Positions 3,037-53,159 of a DNA stretch of 64,000 bases are shown in pieces. Source of the stretch: Squalus acanthias. Lineage: Eukaryota. The notes under the pieces are model-generated. The model searched no databases and was not told the origin of the DNA. It saw only the letters and a program-made list of their open reading frames with translations. Made by a program: the position numbers and the translations under genes. The stretch's first letter is position 1; each line of letters begins with the position of its first letter. The stretch is from assembly GCA_030390025.1 (NCBI GenBank), contig CM059432.1:93932001-93996000 (forward strand), given 5' to 3'.

Positions 3037-3447
3037 GGAGGTCATACCTCCTGCAACAGACTGCAAATGGAGCCACTTTCATCTGTTAGATATTTTCACA
3101 ATTCTTCACTAGACAGCTGAAGCCATATTATGGAAGTCACCTGTTTTATATCACCAACTTGACAACCTGGGGTCATACCAGGATTCCAATTGCCAGTAAG
3201 AATTGAGTGCCTGTAGCACATGCTCACGGCCCTAAACACCACCAAATTCGGATACTTCAGTAACACGGTGTCAGCACGTGTATGAATTTCAGTTTTAAAT
3301 TCAGCTGTAATCTAAATTCAGCACATTTCCTGCTCACTCTTGGTGCAATTACAGTGACTCCACAGTCTAGTATTGAGATCTTTTAAGTCTTAGTGACTTT
3401 CATCTGACTTGACTTATCTAAAGGAGCCATATAAAAATGTGACATGC

Positions 3448-3618
3448 CTGCTCCTTCGTCTCAGAATTGCCGATTCCTGCAGGGGTTCCGTCTAGACCGT
3501 CTGCCTGCTGATGCTCGGCACTCTGCTGTTGTTCAGCTGCTGCCTCTTTCTTTTCAGAGGCTTCCTTCTGTTCTTGGTCCTGCTTTGATTCAGAGTCTGA
3601 GCCCGGTTCCGTTGTCAT
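3448..3618 (-). CDS. EPB41L3: First coding exon (exon 2) of band 4.1-like protein 3 (4.1B/DAL-1); exon 3633-3448, 57 codons, phase 0
   Basis: Translation MTTEPGSDSESKQDQEQKEA...ETKEQ closely resembles the recalled 4.1B N-terminus (MTTESGSDSESKPDQE). Acceptor tctgtcttctAG at 3635-3634, ACCATGA start context, candidate donor CAG|GCATGT at 3448/3447. Confidence 0.88.
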
Positions 3619-3690
3619 GGTTGTAAATTATTCCTAGAAGACAGATTCATTAGAGAAAATCAGTTTACAATTGCTTGGTACAGACACAAA

Positions 3691-3933
3691 AGGGTAAAGT
3701 TTCGTCTTAACCTCCTGGGTGTGAAGCATTGCCTGGGCAGAGAGGAAATTCCAGTGGGGAGAAATGCACAACCCCCCACAGAACCTGCCTAATCCACCTT
3801 CTATTTAAATGTAATGGAAGGAAAACCAGGCGAGTTCCGTAACAGGCACGCCAACCTCCCCACCTAATTTTTGTTGCTGCGCTCTACCCGGGCAATGTTT
3901 AGTGCCCAGGTGCTAAAGATGGAAATCTACCCC
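3691..3933. mobile_element. MITE with imperfect TIRs, AAA TSD (PIF/Harbinger-type)
   Basis: GGGTAAAGTTTCGTCTT ... AAGATGGAAATCTACCC; AAA on both flanks. Confidence 0.6.
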
Positions 3934-26685: not shown

Positions 26686-27109
26686 ATCATGCTTCTTTAA
26701 TGCTTTACTATACTGATGTGACAGCAAGCCTGTGTTTTCATTTTAATGCAGGAGTGTCAAACGTACAACCCACGTTCTGGATGCAGCCTGCAGAATAATT
26801 TCATCCAGCCAGTGGTGTGCTATGCTTAAGGATGTCGTGAGTGCTGCAATGGGACACAATTCTCCCGGGCACTGGTTCCAACAGCCTAGGAGAACGGCCC
26901 TTTTTACATTTTGCTCCAAATTAGCAGCCCTCCCCATGCCGTCACCTCCCTCCATGCACCTGCAAGCACAGAGAACCAGCACTCACTTTGGAATGGCCTG
27001 ATACAGAACCGGCTGGTGGATGGGAGAGAAGGAAGAGCTGGGAGAGGTGCTGGGTTGGGCTGGAAGAAGATGACTAGAAAGTCGGGTGGCATGGATTGGG
27101 ATTCCGGTG

Positions 27110-28205
27110 GGGGGAAGCGCAAGGGAGGACAGGTGAATGGGTTGGGCGGGGGGGGAAAGGGAGGACAGGTGAATGGGTTGGGCAGGGGGGAGGGGGGGAA
27201 GGGAGGACAGGTGAATGGGTTGGGCGGGGGGGGGAAAGGGAGGACAGGTGAATGGGTTGGGCGGGGGGGGGGGGGGAAGGGAGGACAGGTGAATGGGTTG
27301 GGGGAAGGGAGGACAGGTGAATGGGTTGGGGGAAGGGAGGACAGGTGAATGGGTTGGGCAGGGGGGAAAGGGAGGCCAGGTGAATGGGTTGGGCAGCGGG
27401 GGGGGGGGATGGGAGGACAGGTGAATGGGTTGGGCAGGGAGGACAGGTGAATGGGTTGGGATGGGGGAAGGGGGGACAGGTGAATGGGTTGGGGGGAGAG
27501 GGAGGACAGGTGAGTGGGTTGGGCGGGGGGGGAAGGGAGGACAGGCGAATGGGTTTGGCAGGGGGGGGCGGGGGGAGACAGGCGAGTGGGTCGGGCGGGG
27601 GGGGGGGGGGGGGGGAGGGCAGGTGACAGGTGATCGGGTCGGGCAGGGGTGGGGGGGGGACAGGTGACAGGTGACAGGGTCGGGCGGGGGGGAAAGGGAG
27701 GACAGGTGACAGGTGAGTGGGTTGGGCAAGGGGGGGGGACAGGTGACAGGTGAGTGGGTCGGGCAGGGGGGGGGGGGGAGGGAGGACAGGTGACAGGTGA
27801 GTGGGTCGGGCAGGAGGGAGGACAGGTGAGTGGGTCGGGAGGGGGGAAAGGGAGGACAGGTGACAGGTGAGTGGGTCGGGCAAGGGGGGGGACAGGTGAC
27901 AGGTGAGTGGGTCGGGCGGGGGGGGGGAGGGAGGACAGGTGACAGGTGAGTGGGTCGGGCAGGGGGGGGGGTCGGGCGGGGGGGAAAGGGAGGACAGGTG
28001 ACAGGTGAGTGGGTCGGGCAAGGGGGGGGACAGGTGACAGGTGAGTGGGTCGGGCAGGGGGGGGGGAGGGAGGACAGGTGAATGGGTTGGGCGGGGGGGG
28101 GGAAGGGAGGACAGGTGACAGGTGAGTGGGTCGGGCAGGAGGGAGGACAGGTGAGTGGGTCGGGAGGGGGGAAAGGGAGGACAGGTGACAGGTGAGTGGG
28201 TCGGT
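27110..28205. repeat. G-rich minisatellite, ~30-40-bp unit GGGAGGACAGGTG(A/ACAGGTGAG)..GGG(T/TC)GGGC(G)n
   Basis: Directly visible tandem units with variable poly-G spacers. Confidence 0.97.
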
Positions 28206-28679
28206 CGTGGGGCATTTTCTGCAAAACCAGGAGCAACATGGTGAGTGGGAGCGACGCCAAGGGAGGAGCAGCCAGCACAGGGTGAGTGAAACCTGGAGAC
28301 TCTACTGTGGGTAAATGGTGAAAGATGGTTTCCACTGGAGCATGAATGGGGAGCAAAGGTATGGAGACGGAAGATTCTCACTGCACCAGGGAGCTGCTCA
28401 CCTTCATTTTACATCATAAGCTCCAATACATGGGGAGTGAGTAGCACGGAGCCCAGCTTCTACAGAGTACGAAACTAGGGAACTTGGTGAGTGAGGGGTA
28501 AGAGGTGCTGCTTGATACATTAAAAAAAAACACAACTAGGGTTAAATTAGGACTGTGGGCTAAGTTACAGTAAAGACCTAAAGCATATAACTATATTTAA
28601 TAAATTAAACAAGGTTATTACCTAGATTAAAAACTATTAATAGACAATTGAGTATTTCAAAACTTGAAAACCTAGTTTT

Positions 28680-29800
28680 TTTTTATTTGTTTATGGGATG
28701 TGGGCGTCACTGGCAATGCCAGCATTTATTCCCCATCCCTAATTGCCCTTGAGAACGTGGTGGTGAGCCATCTTCTTGAACCGTTACAGTCAGTGTGGTG
28801 AAGGTACTCCCACAGTGCTGTTAGGGAGGGAGTTCCAGGATTTTGACCCATCGACGATGTACTTCTAAGTCAGGATGGTGTGTGACTTGGAGGGGAACTT
28901 GGAGGTGGTGGTGTTCCCATGCGCCTGCTGCCTTTGTCCTTCTAGGTGGAAGAGGTTGCGGGTTTGGGAGGTGCTGCCGAAGAAGCCTTAGCAAGTTGCT
29001 GCAGTGCATCTTGTAGATGGTACACACTGTAGCCACGGTACACCGGTGGTGGAGGGAGTGAATGTTTAAGGTGGTGGATAGGGTGCCAATCAAGCGGGCT
29101 GCTTTGTCCTGGATGGTGTCGAGCTTCTTGAGTGTTGTTGGAGCTGCACTCATCCAGGCAAGTGGAGAGTATTCCATCACACTCCTTACTTGTGCCTTGT
29201 AGATGGTAGAAAGGCTTTGGGGAGTCAGGAGGTGAGACATTCGCCACAGAATACTTGCCTCTGACCTGCTCTTGTTGCCACAGTATTTATGTGGCTGGTC
29301 CAGTTAGGTTTCTGGTCAATGGTGACCCCCAGGATGGGGATTCGGCGATGGTAATGCTGTTGAATGTCAAGGGGCGGTGTTTAGACTCTCACTTGTTGGA
29401 GATAGTCATGGCCTGACACTTCTGTGGCACGAATGTTACCTGCCACTTATCAGCCCAAGCCTGAACATCGTCCAGGTCTTGTTGCACGCGGGCATGGACT
29501 GCTTCATTATCTGAGGGGTTGTGAATGGCACTGAACACTGCAGTCATCAGCGAACATACCCATTTCTGACCTTATGTTGGAGGGAAGGTCATTGATGAAG
29601 CAACTGAAGATGATTGGGCCAAGGACACTGCCCTGAGGAACTCCTGCAGCGATGTCCTGGGGCTGTGAAGATTGACCTTCAAATCACCACAACCATCTTC
29701 CTTTGTGCTTGGTATGACTCCAGCCTGTGGAGAATTTCCCCAACCCCCCTCCCGATTCCCACTTCAGTTTTACTAGGGCTCCTTGATGCCACACTCGATC
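28680..29800 (-). mobile_element. CR1/L2-group LINE (second family) inserted in the CR1 5'UTR
   Basis: ORF IYKAQVRSVMEYSPLAWMSAA; same tail as 46163-47650 in reverse. Confidence 0.92.
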
Positions 29801-32161
29801 AAATTAGTTAAATAAAATACAACAGAGATGGCAGGGCAGGTGATGTGTTGCAGCTGTAGCATGTGGGAGATGGTGGACCCCAATGTGATCCACAGTAACC
29901 ACATCTGCATTAAGTGTCTGCAGTTAGAGGAACTTTGGCTCAGAGTTGATGAGCTGGAGTCCGAGCTTCGGACACTGCGATACATCAGGGAGGGAGAAAG
30001 TTACCTGGACACTTTGTTCCAGGAGGCAGTCACACTCCTTAGGTTAAATACTTCAGATCTGGTCCGTGGTCAGGGACAGGAGGGTGCAACTACAAGTGAG
30101 GCAGGTATGGGGATCCAGAAGGTAGCATTGGAGGAGCCTCAGCCCTTGCACTTGTCCAACAGTAGCCTGTATGGACGAGAGCAGGGACTGCAGGGAGGAT
30201 GAGCAAACTGACCACAGCATCGTGGTACAGGGGGCCATTCAAGTTGGGGGAGTAAAAAGGAATATAGTAGTGGTAGGAGGCAGTATAGTTAGGGGGATAG
30301 ATACTGTTCTCTGTAGCTGAGAGCGTGAGTCCCGAATGCGGTGTTGCCTGCCAGGGTTAAGGACATCTCCTCAGGGCTGGAGAGGAACTTGGAGTGGGAG
30401 GAGAAGGGTCCAGTTGTCGTGGTCCACGTAGGTACCAACGACATAGGTAGGACTAAGAAAGAGGTTCTGCTGAGGGCTTATGAGCAGCTAGGGGCTAAAT
30501 TAAAAAGCAGAAACACAAAGGTAATAATCTCCGTATTACTACCTGAGCCACAAGCACATTGGCATAGGGTCGGTAAAAGAGAGTTGAATGCGTGGCTCAA
30601 GGATTGGTGTGAGAGAAACGGGTTTTGACTCATGGGGCACTGGCACCAGTACTGGGGAAAGAGGGAGCTGTTCTGCTGGGGCTGGCTTCACTTGAACCGT
30701 GCTGGGACTAGTGTCCTGGCGAATCGAATAACTGGGGCTGTAGATAGGGCTTTAAACTAAATAGTGGGGTGGGGGGTGGCGGGAGGGAAGGGGAGGGTTC
30801 ACGTGAGGGGAAACTTAGAAAGTTAAAGAGAAAGGACCAGGCAATAGTGCAGGGTAGCGATAGGGGTAATGATAACCAGAGTGTGACAGGAAGGAACAGA
30901 GCGTACAAGCATAAGAGTGCACCAGTAAATAGGGTCACAGTAGGGAAAAATGGTAAAAAGACAAAATTAAAGGCTCTTTATCTGAATGCATGCAGCATTC
31001 GTAACAAGATAGATGAATTGACGGAAAATAGAAATAAATGGGTATGATCCGATAGCCAATACAGAGACGTGGTTGCAGGGTGACCAAGGTAGAGAACTGA
31101 ATATTCAGGGGTATTTAACATTTCGGAAGGGTAGGCAGAAAGGAAAAGGATGTGGGGTAGCTCTGTTAATAAAGGATGATATCAGTGCAGTAGTGAGAAA
31201 TGATCTTGGCTCAGAAGATCAAGATGTAGAATCAGTTTGGGTGGAGATAAGAAATAGTAAGGGAAAGAAGTCACTGGTGGGAGTAGTCTATAGGCCCCCT
31301 AACAATAGCTACACTGTAGGACAGAGTATAAATCAATGAAATAATGGGGGCTTGTAAGAAAGGTACTGCAATAATTGTGGGCGATTTTAATCTTCATATA
31401 GATTGGACAAATCAAATTGGCAAGGGTAGCCTTGAGGACGAGTTCATAGAGTGTATTCAGGACAGTTTCTTAGAACAATACGTTGTGGAACCAAACAGAG
31501 AACAGGCTATTTTATATCTGGTAATGTGTAATGAGACAGGATGAATTAATGATCTCACAGTAAAGGATCCTCTCGGGAAAAGTGATCATAGCATGATAGA
31601 ATTTCAAATTCAGTTTGAGGGTGAGAAACTTAGGTCTGAAATTAGTGTCTTAAACTTAAATAAAGGCAATTACAAAGGTATGAAGACAGAGTTGGCTAAA
31701 GTGGACTGGGAAAATAGATTAAAAAGTAAGATGGTAGATAAGCAGTGGCAGACTTTTAAGGAGATATTTCATAACTCTCAACAAAGATATATTCCAGTGA
31801 GAAAGAAAGACTCTACGAGAAGGATGAACCATCCATGGCTAACTAAGAAAGTTAAGGATGGTATCAAATTGAAAGAAAAGGCATACAATGTTGCAAAGAT
31901 TAGTGGTAGGTTAGAAGATTGAGAAATTTTTAGAAACTTGCAAAGGATGACTAAAAAAATAATAAAGAGGGAGAAAATAGATTATGAGAGTAAACTAGCA
32001 AGAAATATAAAAACAGACAGTAAGAGCTTCTACAAGTATATAAAAATGAAGAGAGTAGCTAAAGTAAACGTTGGTCTCTTCGAGGATGAGACTGGGGAAT
32101 TAATAATGGGAAACGAGGAAATGGCAGAGACTTTGAACAAATATTTTGTATCTGTCTTCAC

Positions 32162-48070: not shown

Positions 48071-50231
48071 CAAAGAGTAATTCTGCTCTTTCTACATCTG
48101 TTCAAAATGAATCATTTTTACACAATATCGGACTTTGATCTCAGCAACAATCATTGCACATTAAATACTTTAATCTGCTGAATAAATCTGACAAGGGCAT
48201 TGAATCTAAGTTCTGGCTGCAAATTGATAGGAGGCTGCTGGAGGGAACATCATTTGGTGCTAGAAACTGAACAGCTCTGTCTGAAAAAGATGGAAAATTC
48301 TTGTCTCAAAAAAACAGCAAACAACTTCCAAAAAGCAAATACTGTGTAGCCCTGTATAGACACACTACTGTAAATCTGCATTACACATAAATTATCAAGA
48401 ATTACTGTGCAAAATCAAAAGAAATTCTCATGGTAGAATATCAGCTTGAAGTAAATTTGAATCAGGCTGATGAAAAACAAACCAATTTCTGGTGAGACTC
48501 ATCAATACATGCATCAAAGAATAATTTTATATTGTAAAACAAAATGACTGCTTTGAGGCAGAAGCATAAAATGAAATCTGTTTTTATTTGTTCACCCTGG
48601 TTAGGCAAGGTATAGCCCCCTACCTCATCTCAATAGTCATTATATCACAATTATCTTCAGAAATGTTCTATGATAAAGAAACTAAATTCTGGAGCAACTG
48701 AAATCCACCTCCATAGTATTGTACTTAATATCTACCTTTTTCGTATCATGGTTCTTCCTATACCACCCACAAATATATATTATATATATAATAAATATAA
48801 ATACAATTTCAGTGTTGGTCACATGCAAGACTCAATATTAATTATGGTATAAGGCCACCATTAATCTAACTGCTTTTAACACTTCTGTAGTTAAATTGAT
48901 GGGTGAATTACTATCTATTGCAGCTTGAAGAGGGGTAGAGAGAAACTTTACATCAGGTTACTGCAAAATATCTACCATGCCAGTTTGTTGCAAAGTATAG
49001 CCCAAGCGTCACTGCATTTCTATTACACATAACTGAAACTGGGCAAATTAATTATGTAAGGAGCAGTGACTGACGTATGTATTAAATAGGTAGTGCACCT
49101 GTGGATAATATACAGCAACTACCATAGTAAAATGCTTCAGTCTGTGAATAGGTCATTATGTTGTAATGTCTTACCAGAACAATGAGTAACCAGGTCAAAG
49201 CAAGACATCTTGCCAGAAGCATTGTGGCCTCTGGTGGAAATAGCAGTATATCCATGGTAGCTGCTTTATTTCTATTACATTGCAACAGGATAATATATAC
49301 AATTATTTGTCGAGACAAACCACATGAAAACAGAAAATGTTCTATGGGAGTTTGGTCTGAATGAATACTCAATGGGCTGATGCTGCTGCTGTGGATGCAT
49401 CACCCTTCCAAGTGAAATTTCAAGGTCAGGTGTTTAAGATAAAAATAAATTTTAAAAAACCATTCAAACAATACTTCCAAACCAACAACTCTAGTAATTG
49501 TTTACACAGAAAGCACATACAAATAAAGAATGCTCTACTGACTAAACAAGTGCACTCTCTTTTTCCCTAAAATTAAATCAGTACAAATTTACTTCTGAAA
49601 ACCTTATTTTGGTATGGAGTGTGTGAATAAATTCAAAGTTGATCTTCGGTCAATAATTTTACCAATTCTTTTAAATTGATGCTGTGGCTAAATAATTATC
49701 TATAAATGTATCAATACCATTAAAAAAATCAAGTCCCTTGATTTCCAGGGGTTTTATTTAAATTTAACAAAAGGTGGCAGCACTAATGAAGAAAATTTAA
49801 TTTTGTGTAAAATTGAGTATCAAGCATTAAACTGGAGATACCAGCACATATTTAAATTGTGAAGATTCAACTTTCACAATGTTTTAAAGGTACCTGGATA
49901 TATTTAAAGCAATGTGCAGGATACAATTAGCTGCATGTAGCAGGGTGACTTGGAGCAACAGCATCTTAACAGCCCTGGATTAATCACTGGCCTTTCTTTG
50001 TTGCATTATCAAGTACTCATGCTACAGAATATCTTAAAATGAAGCATAAAATGAACATGCTTAATGAATATAATAAGGACATTCAAGACGACAATGAAAT
50101 GCAACCTTGTTTGGAAATATGGAACACACTAAAGTTGAAAGGCATCAAATGTGATGCAAGTTTCCAAAGATGGATTCCTGGCCACTTTCAAGGTTTCTCT
50201 TGATGGCTACCATATGTTGCCACAAACTTAC

Positions 50232-50420
50232 CAGTGAGGAGGAGAGAGGCGAAATTCAGCCTTCCCCCTGCCTGGTGCGGGAATAAAGTGAGAGAAGGTG
50301 GCAGGGTCGGCGGCAGCTTTTCTCAGTCACGATGCGGTCCGGAGAGTGCTGTCACTGCAGCGGTCCACAACTGCCATTTACTCCACACCACACCCACCGC
50401 ATTGCAGAACTGCTGGCAAT
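50232..50420 (-). other. Candidate alternative first exon / intraexon with strong donor
   Basis: Minus strand GCTGAATTTCGCCTCTCTCCTCCTCACTG|GTAAGT; donor at 50232/50231; moderately CpG-rich upstream. Confidence 0.55.
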
Positions 50421-50689
50421 GGGGAAACAATCAAAGCTGCAACTCATCTTACTGACCAAAAGAGATGAATCACGCAGGGATCTCCCTCTTTTTGTGCACT
50501 AACACGTAGACATATCTGTAATTATGCACAAAATGTTATATAACGTTTTATACATTTAGAAGCATAATTGATGAACCACCCACCCACCCTCAGAATTACC
50601 CTTCTGGCGAAACCAAACACAATGTGGCATATTTCGAGATCATATTTCCAGCTTCAAATATGCCTTTTGAGGTCTTTATTTCGTGTATT

Positions 50690-51560
50690 CTATTGCAGCG
50701 TTTCAGTCATCGACTTTGCAAATTCGTAAACACCACACATCCGAACCGCTGCGATCAAAGTGGCTCCTACAGTGCGATCCGACACTATTATCACTATATA
50801 TATATGTCTGCCGTGTTAAAATCAGCAGCGAATAAAGCTGCCCGCGAGCCGTGCGCGGCCCCATTGCAAGAGACCACATGAAAAGCGATCACAAGACAGG
50901 GAGAGAGTAAACAGAGCTCCGAGCCCGCCACTTAAATCGTGCAGCCCAGCCCTACATCCCCACCAACTGCTCACATCCTGCTGACTCAAATAGAAAACTG
51001 ACAGGAATTACATTTTAAAATAAAAAACCCAGAAAGTTGAATATGGCGCCGGGGGCAGACGGCAGAAAGCGGGCGAGGAGCGGCGCGGCGCGGCGCCCGG
51101 GGAGGGGAGCGCAGCGCTGGGTGCAGAGCCATACCTTGGCCGTCCTTGTAGCAGAGCCGGCTGAAGCACGCTGACTAGCGGCGGCGATGAGCAGCAAGCT
51201 TCCTCCTGAGCCACGCGTCACCGCACCCACAACACGCCAACTCTCCAGCGTCTTACAGCAGCCGGGGGCCCGCCAAATCACTGCCCCGGCTCCAGCCGCC
51301 ACCCACTCGTCCCCCCTTTGAAGCGTCGCCGCCGCTTTTCTGTCGGGTTGCTGTGTGCGGGTGGTGAGGAAGGAGCAAGGACGGTGGCTTGTTTGCCTGT
51401 GCGCAGTGTTACAGTGCATCAGGGAGACTGGAGGGGGAGCCGGGGGGGTGGGGGGGGGGGGGGAGGAGCGCTCCTCCAACAGCGCTGAACCGGCCACCAC
51501 AGATGGGGCAAGCGAGCGCTGTGGGAATTTGGGGGCTGGAAGCTTCTCGCTCTCTCTCTC
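50690..51560. promoter_or_regulatory. CpG island / probable promoter
   Basis: GC- and CpG-dense (cggcgcggcgcggcgcccgg, gcggcggcg) in an otherwise AT-rich, CpG-depleted window, with no recognisable repeat. Confidence 0.8.
51135..51360 (-). other. EPB41L3: Putative non-coding first exon of the EPB41L3-like gene (5' boundary unknown)
   Basis: Inside the CpG island; donor AAG|GTATGG at 51135/51134; no minus-strand ATG between 51135 and ~51415. Confidence 0.6.
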
Positions 51561-53159
51561 TCTACTCGATGCAGTATAATTAGAAACAGATTGCTTCTGT
51601 ACAGTGTTACACACGCAAAGGAACTTTCCTCAGCTGCATACTTTGATGCATGGCAATTTGTAAGATCCCTTCACTGTTCTGTTGCTGCACTGCATCATTT
51701 AATAAATCAAAATGTAAAACTTTCAAAAATCATTTGTATGTACATTATCGGAACACAATGCACTTATGCACCAAATTGCAAACCCCTTAACCCAGTTAAG
51801 TTTTATTGTTCCGCTGCAGTTTAGTGAACATGATATTGAACCATTTAATAAACTCAAATTTTCCGGTGATGGAACGAAATTTTCCTGAAATATAAATTTT
51901 AAAAAAAGGGAACACTCCCTGTACATTCTGAACTTGCAGTTATTGCTAAGCGTGTGAAAGGCACGCAAAGCTAGAGCGGCCGGTTGGTTAAGGCTCTAAA
52001 AGACCAAGTGGGAGAGGGAGGACACTGCATGTCAAGCTGCTTGATGCGATAGGATTTAATTTCCAGGTGGTGTTTCATATTGCCCAATTTAGCTGCAGAC
52101 ATGTCAGCCAAATGTTTGTGCCACATAAGAGACCTGAATTTCCGCACACAGCTGGATTGAAACGATTACAGCACTCGCTGAGTTGATGGCCGTATCTACC
52201 CACACTAATTCAGGTCCCTCAATTACGGTGTGCCGTTAATTCATCCCAGGCAGCTTTCCCGTTTAGATAGATGGTCGTTTTTTTTCTCGATAATCAAAAA
52301 TACACCGAACAAAATTGTGTTAAAGGTAACTAATTCTTCGTAGGCATTTACTTTTAACAATGCTAAAGAGACTCCTTCATTAAAGCAAAACTGTCTAAAT
52401 AATGAGAAATTATTCGGGTATGGAGGTGTCTTCAGTGTAAAATTAGTATATTCTAAGTAGCATGGTAGATAATTATAATTACACCACTGGATGCTGAGAA
52501 GTGTCTTTCCACCCGTGAATACCTTCGTCCTCTCCCACAAACTGTCAGGTTTCCCATCTCAACCACACTGCTGTGAAGAAACCTCAAGCAGAGAATTATA
52601 AGGCGAGATGGAAAACTTGAACAAGTTCAACCTCAGCTGCTCTCGCATAACTCTAAATAACATTAAGGAAGACCTTCGAGCACGTTGGGTGTGATAGTAT
52701 AGAGCAGAACGAATCTCAATTGGGGAATGAAGAAAAATAAAATAGGACGTTATTCTCTCAAAAACCGTTTGCATGTTAGCAATCAACAAAATGAAGGATT
52801 AAGGTTTGTGTTAATAAATTTCCCACACAGTGAGTTACTGACTTAGTCTGAACCATCAGGAACAAGTGTGAGTAAACATCAGATCAAGAGGGTGAAAAAT
52901 AACGGTGTCACCTCCCAGCAGTTAACACAAGAGCAGCATTTGCTGATCATTGGTCACCATCTGCTCCACTGGCCAGGGGTTGGCGCAAAGTGTGGATGTG
53001 GAAGAAAGCAGGCAGATTAATAACTTTTTTTTTTACAAGCTAGTAAACCTCCTATAGGCATCTTTTCCTGAAAATAGCATCCGAACTCTCGACCTCTACT
53101 TGTTTTTTTTCTGGCAATTCCTTTTTTACCAGTCCAGCAAGGGACTTCTCCAGTCTGAC

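Follow-up and report, generated by a model that had tools for sequence, protein, structure and literature searches.

Does a short motif deep in intron 1 of a shark protein 4.1 gene serve as an intraexon, through which a far first exon is spliced past the start codon of exon 2? In EPB41 (4.1R), intrasplicing has been described as the route by which exon 1A joins exon 2 past AUG1 (PMC3439910, PMC4394429, 10.1101/159350, PMC7373989). The motif considered here lies on the minus strand of a 64,000-nucleotide stretch of Squalus acanthias DNA, referred to as the window, and a sequence-only reading had proposed it as such an intraexon. We lean towards a different reading, in which a conserved, minor and untranslated 5' exon ends at the motif, is spliced from its donor to the proximal acceptor of exon 2 and keeps AUG1; this would more likely be an alternative first exon than an intraexon.

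The junction evidence comes from assembled contigs, for which depth is rough, rare paths may drop out and RNA starts are invisible. Seven of 14 runs were examined, X1, X4, X8 and X14 over positions 50000-51700 and X4, X3, X9 and X11 over 3330-3780. None of the 14 is recorded as RNA; six are taken as RNA-like on the strength of contigs in which exons 47-137 kb apart meet at splice sites. Tables for 3330-3780 are complete; for 50000-51700 a further 12 substitution rows, 8 indel rows and 30 loose ends exist beyond those listed, so that substitutions, indels and loose ends there are the listed ones only.

EPB41L3 and its two exon-2 acceptors

In a protein database comparison the peptide of exon 2 shows 93% identity to a shark 'band 4.1-like protein 3', and among the 120 best of 154 matches every named one is a shark, ray or skate protein labelled 4.1-like 3 or hypothetical. 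Exons for the FERM, FA, SAB and CTD domains follow in order downstream of this MTTE-type exon 2, beyond the window (L002-L015). Given the peptide matches and the remaining exons in order, the gene in the window is, by sequence, shark EPB41L3 (protein 4.1B), in agreement with the initial assignment. Its second exon has the following parts.

3448..3633, minus strand: EPB41L3 exon 2, 186 nt, carrying AUG1 (sequence and contigs)
3597..3633, minus strand: exon 2' (37 nt), with AUG1 inside and no AG before 3598-3597

The ATG lies at 3618-3616, between a proximal acceptor at 3633 and a distal acceptor at 3596. No pyrimidine tract belongs to the distal acceptor itself, exon 2' being 40% pyrimidine. 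After a distal join no ATG is left in exon 2, and the next one in frame comes where the FERM domain begins, in exon 3. The X8 contig, from organism C, is an exception to the AG-free state of exon 2': in this one contig a G at 3621 creates an extra AG at 3622-3621, just before AUG1. If that G is fixed in the organism C lineage, a two-step splice there would keep the start codon.

The intron downstream of exon 2 opens with GC (CAG/GCATGT, window 3447-3442), and exit at 3448 into exon 3 in contigs of all four runs marks it as a used GC-AG intron. An X3 contig (depth 224) joins the end of exon 3 (L002:9533-9324) to the start of exon 2 (3633-3448), giving a 396-nt circle of exons 2-3 that is most simply read as a product of back-splicing; on either side of the circle lie two pairs of inverted repeats, about 70% identical. 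The partner once taken for an unknown 'first exon' in X3 is exon 3.

Acceptor choice among the 5' exons

Three 5' exons with donors at 51135, 50600 and 50232 cluster 46-48 kb upstream of exon 2, and all join 3633. A fourth lies far outside the window.

51135..51391, minus strand: CpG-island first exon, joining the proximal acceptor (X4 contig; loose ends at 3635 in X9 and X11)
50600..50944, minus strand: second 5' exon upstream of the motif, joining 3633 (X1 contig, depth 507, with no other letters against the window)
50232..50491, minus strand: minor 5' leader exon, untranslated, with the motif at its end; 260 nt or more in X8 (contig 50491-50244 running into exon 2)
L049:6161-6520 (G000:C8:94072161 and above): far exon 1A, outside the window, with a strong donor (exact match in X4)

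Exon 1A stands 136,528 nt upstream of exon 2 and 89,929 nt upstream of the motif; upstream ATGs are listed in it. In X4 it joins 3596 (depth 103), with an exact match to the exon ending at L049:6161. The distal partner in X11 (depth 90) aligns best to exon 1A, ending 8 nt earlier, at a score of 34 against a background of 33. The distal acceptor, whose use had been predicted, is used in two of the four runs on exon 2 (X4 and X11); its use was not seen in the X3 and X9 contigs.

The CpG-island exon behaves differently. It joins 3633 in three of four runs, from three organisms (X4 at depth 7, X9 at 130, X11 at 50), and joins 3596 in none of the four, as judged from contigs on exon 2, in which a minor form could be lost. 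By our own reading at k=31, the X11 distal contig is unbroken where a path from 51135 to 3596 would merge. The predicted product in which this exon reaches the distal acceptor thus finds no counterpart in the contigs. Intrasplicing of the CpG exon to 3596 by way of the motif, which lies 900 nt downstream of it, is permitted by geometry but highly improbable, given these joins and the proximal joining in X1 of exon 50944-50600, which also lies upstream of the motif.

Promoter-coupled acceptor choice exists in cartilaginous fishes. Two-step splicing is its likely cause, by analogy with the known systems, and we consider it rather probable that one element or another supports intrasplicing at this shark locus. 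As 3596 lacks its own pyrimidine tract, its use is most naturally explained by a branch site and tract borrowed from elsewhere. From known biology, exon 1A would reach 3596 by two nested splices through an intraexon upstream of the promoter cluster. The join would drop AUG1 and move the translation start to the exon-3 ATG where the FERM domain opens (M110 in the closest relative), so that the exon 1A message would encode 4.1B without its N-terminal headpiece. The best sequence candidate for that intraexon is putatively the following.

L044:5243 (G000:C8:94021243), intron 1: TTCTAAC branch, T-rich tract and GT donor; score 28.2

It has a better branch word than the motif, a T-rich tract and a weaker donor. 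Together with L044:5340 it forms a pair of single-copy branch, tract and donor elements 97 nt apart, the best above the promoter cluster. Other candidates were set aside: 114168 lies in a repeat with 10 BLAST matches, 132582 and 118719 lie in repeats with 19 and 8, 124789 has a good branch word and donor and almost no tract, and 130640 and 128692 have weak donors. Also within intron 1, window positions 27001-32000 are strongly G-skewed and GC-rich (at 27-28 kb, GC 0.68 and skew 0.76) and probably form a tandem or simple repeat.

The motif and its readings

The motif lies in intron 1, 46.6 kb upstream of exon 2, with the CpG-exon donor 51135 903 nt and the donor 50600 368 nt upstream of its own donor.

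50226..50262, minus strand: weak branch-like CTGAA, C-rich tract and donor, last exon base 50232 (sequence; donor joined to 3633 in contigs of X8 and X11)
50232..50271, minus strand: possible 40-nt cassette form, a candidate (acceptor AG 50273-50272; no contig with its use)

On the minus strand the order is CTGAA (50258-50254), a pyrimidine tract (19 of 21 nt, as 8 T and 11 C), CTCAC and the donor CTG/GTAAGT, with no AG in the window sequence between 50260 and the 50232 donor. This arrangement, about 900 nt below the CpG-exon donor, is present as first described, and the window sequence likewise bears out that after a 50232 to 3633 join the first AG is at 3598-3597, downstream of the ATG. The branch site is weak, matching at 4 of 6 positions. 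Two features were missing from the earlier description, namely an AG at 50262-50261 that directly precedes the branch-like motif, and a good acceptor AG at 50273-50272 that would give a 40-nt exon (50271-50232) and that a simple filter places in the top 25 of the 3752 AGs found in 3635-64000.

As a pattern alone, the motif stands only slightly beyond chance. It ranks first of six elements passing our filter on the gene strand of the 136.5-kb intron, with a score of 30.4 from an approximate donor matrix; the opposite strand of the same intron holds nine such elements, the best at 29.2. Post hoc thresholds fitted to the motif return one element in 464 kb of gene strand and none in 464 kb of the opposite strand, and easing the pyrimidine limit adds two near-equals. 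A search of the genome with the DNA of 50180-50420 gave no match beyond the locus itself, and a pattern scan of metagenomes for the motif gave none. The motif is counted as real on account of its junction-spanning contigs and its conservation, rather than its pattern score.

Use of the 50232 donor, another prediction of the sequence-only reading, is seen in two of the six RNA-like runs, where a contig beginning at 50491 carries it into 3633 at depth 11 in X8 (organism C) and a 353-nt contig does so at depth 18 in X11 (organism D). The junction is not among the listed joins in X1, X3, X4 and X9, its absence from X1 and X4 not being taken as proof; the main X9 contig starts at 3634, pointing to an unlisted second path. 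Short upstream reading frames lie inside the 50232-50491 exon, and TATA-like words stand at 50552 and 50542, upstream of the contig end at 50491.

Conservation extends over the exon as a whole. In organism F, 2 of the 37 listed substitutions fall in the 260-nt exon against 13 in the neighbouring 345-nt exon (Fisher P = 0.018), and the conserved stretch covers all 260 nt and not the last 40 nt alone (P = 0.005 against flanks), with P = 0.12 once clustered substitutions are merged and the stretch is freely chosen. In organism C the exon is about 97% conserved (X8, one contig), with 6 substitutions in 245 positions against 10 in 187 of coding exon 2 (P = 0.13, from figures of two runs). Changes within the tract in organisms C and F stay pyrimidine and create no AG, although they are few and transitions are common anyway.

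A leader exon with its donor at 50232 is consistent with these data. A possible, if tentative, addition to it is a dual role, in which the motif is a true intraexon for the far exon 1A as well as the donor of a leader exon: its donor would join 3633 first, after which its branch site and tract would let the 1A donor join 3596, while transcripts that start at the exons of donors 51135 and 50600 would give the proximal acceptor to these cap-proximal donors. Of all branch, tract and donor elements in the intron between exon 1A and exon 2 the motif ranks first, its conserved tract keeps pyrimidines and gains no AG, and the low depth of the 50232 to 3633 join also fits an intermediate. At first the 4.1R intraexon, too, was regarded as an alternative first exon, which lends the dual role a precedent. 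The dual role calls, however, for a further rule to explain why redirection spares the two nearer donors upstream. In X8 the contig breaks off in an adapter at 50491, where an intermediate should continue into intron above (contigs cannot show starts), and the same contig carries the AG inside exon 2'. Weakly against it, X4 shows the product of exon 1A and 3596 (depth 103) with neither the 50232 to 3633 junction nor a listed contig on the motif. The branch site is weaker and the tract more C-rich than at L044:5243, and the conserved stretch is far longer than an intraexon needs. The position also differs from that of the human 4.1B intraexon, which reportedly lies about 120 kb upstream of exon 2 and above the main promoter; the shark motif lies below two proximal-splicing first exons. 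That one conserved shark element below the main promoters should be both a leader exon and the intraexon of an exon 90 kb distant, redirecting that exon alone and leaving untouched two donors within 1 kb upstream, strikes us as doubtful.

An unlikely variant makes the motif the end of a short internal leader cassette exon, either one of 40 nt beginning at 50271 or one of 181 or 284 nt that begins after AGs further upstream, fed by 51135 or 50600, with the pyrimidines exonic. The good acceptor at 50273-50272 would serve it. The X11 contig at the 51135 junction begins exactly 30 nt above the donor, which may point to a second partner whose first base is not G, and no more than a 0.05 share of the 50150-51500 words is present in X11. 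Against this, the X8 contig passes 50271 and 50412 without a splice and reaches 50491, and the length of the 353-nt X11 contig is matched exactly by no listed AG, the nearest giving 343. The 284-nt form folds no better than shuffles (z -0.65). The alternative first exon joined to 3633 remains our preferred reading of the motif.

Relation to other protein 4.1 systems

Several features of 4.1-type intraexons are found at the motif: an AG-free branch, tract and donor, joining of that donor to 3633, and a distal acceptor that is the first AG and is used, with the organism C AG at 3622-3621 (one contig) as the exception. In the 4.1 genes, first exons upstream of the intraexon are reportedly redirected to the distal acceptor. 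Such redirection holds here for exon 1A and fails for 51135 (proximal in three of four runs, distal in none) and for 50600 (X1). As it lacks this feature, the motif is not classed as a member of the 4.1 intraexons.

The locus as a whole resembles EPB41L3 intrasplicing, being the same gene with two exon-2 acceptors, a far first exon that goes to the distal acceptor, other 5' exons that go to the proximal one, and a deep-intron branch, tract and donor element available. Promoter-coupled acceptor choice is said to occur in both EPB41 and EPB41L3 from fish to mammals, and the shark gene follows that pattern, its 5'-most exon joining the distal acceptor and the others the proximal. It differs from those cases in belonging to cartilaginous fishes and in having three clustered proximal-splicing 5' exons. 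Relative to the EPB41 system it is a different paralogue, with an exon 2' of 37 nt. The shark genome also holds the corresponding part of EPB41.

L063:5644-5628 (G000:C16), minus strand: shark EPB41 (4.1R) exon 2', 17 nt, with AUG1, a distal AG and no internal AG (sequence; best PDB matches are 4.1R)

Its length and AG-free interior match the layout of mammalian 4.1R, whose exon 2' is given as 17 nt (PMC2614411). In the 200 kb upstream of shark 4.1R exon 2 no standout element was found, only nine weak matches over both strands. The two-acceptor layout in both shark paralogues, judged from their sequences, agrees with an origin before the 4.1R/4.1B split.

A promoter-selective intrasplicing switch would follow if the dual role were true, in contrast to the mammalian rule, which goes by position alone, and the shared layout of shark 4.1R and 4.1B would then place the system before the split of both genes. 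The sequence-only reading further suggested that the mechanism may be conserved in this lineage, which would date it to early jawed vertebrates. The acceptor switch is indeed present, with junction evidence; the dating adds little, since intrasplicing has already been reported in two 4.1 paralogues (PMC7373989), which already implied the age of the mechanism. No publication joining 'intrasplicing' and 'shark' was found in a search that excluded primary papers and so says little about print.

The locus is a further case of a known system and a modest extension of known biology. Exact coordinates are now given for testing which deep-intron element drives the switch. A rare known switch, by which promoter choice sets the N-terminus of protein 4.1, is extended to cartilaginous fishes with junction evidence.
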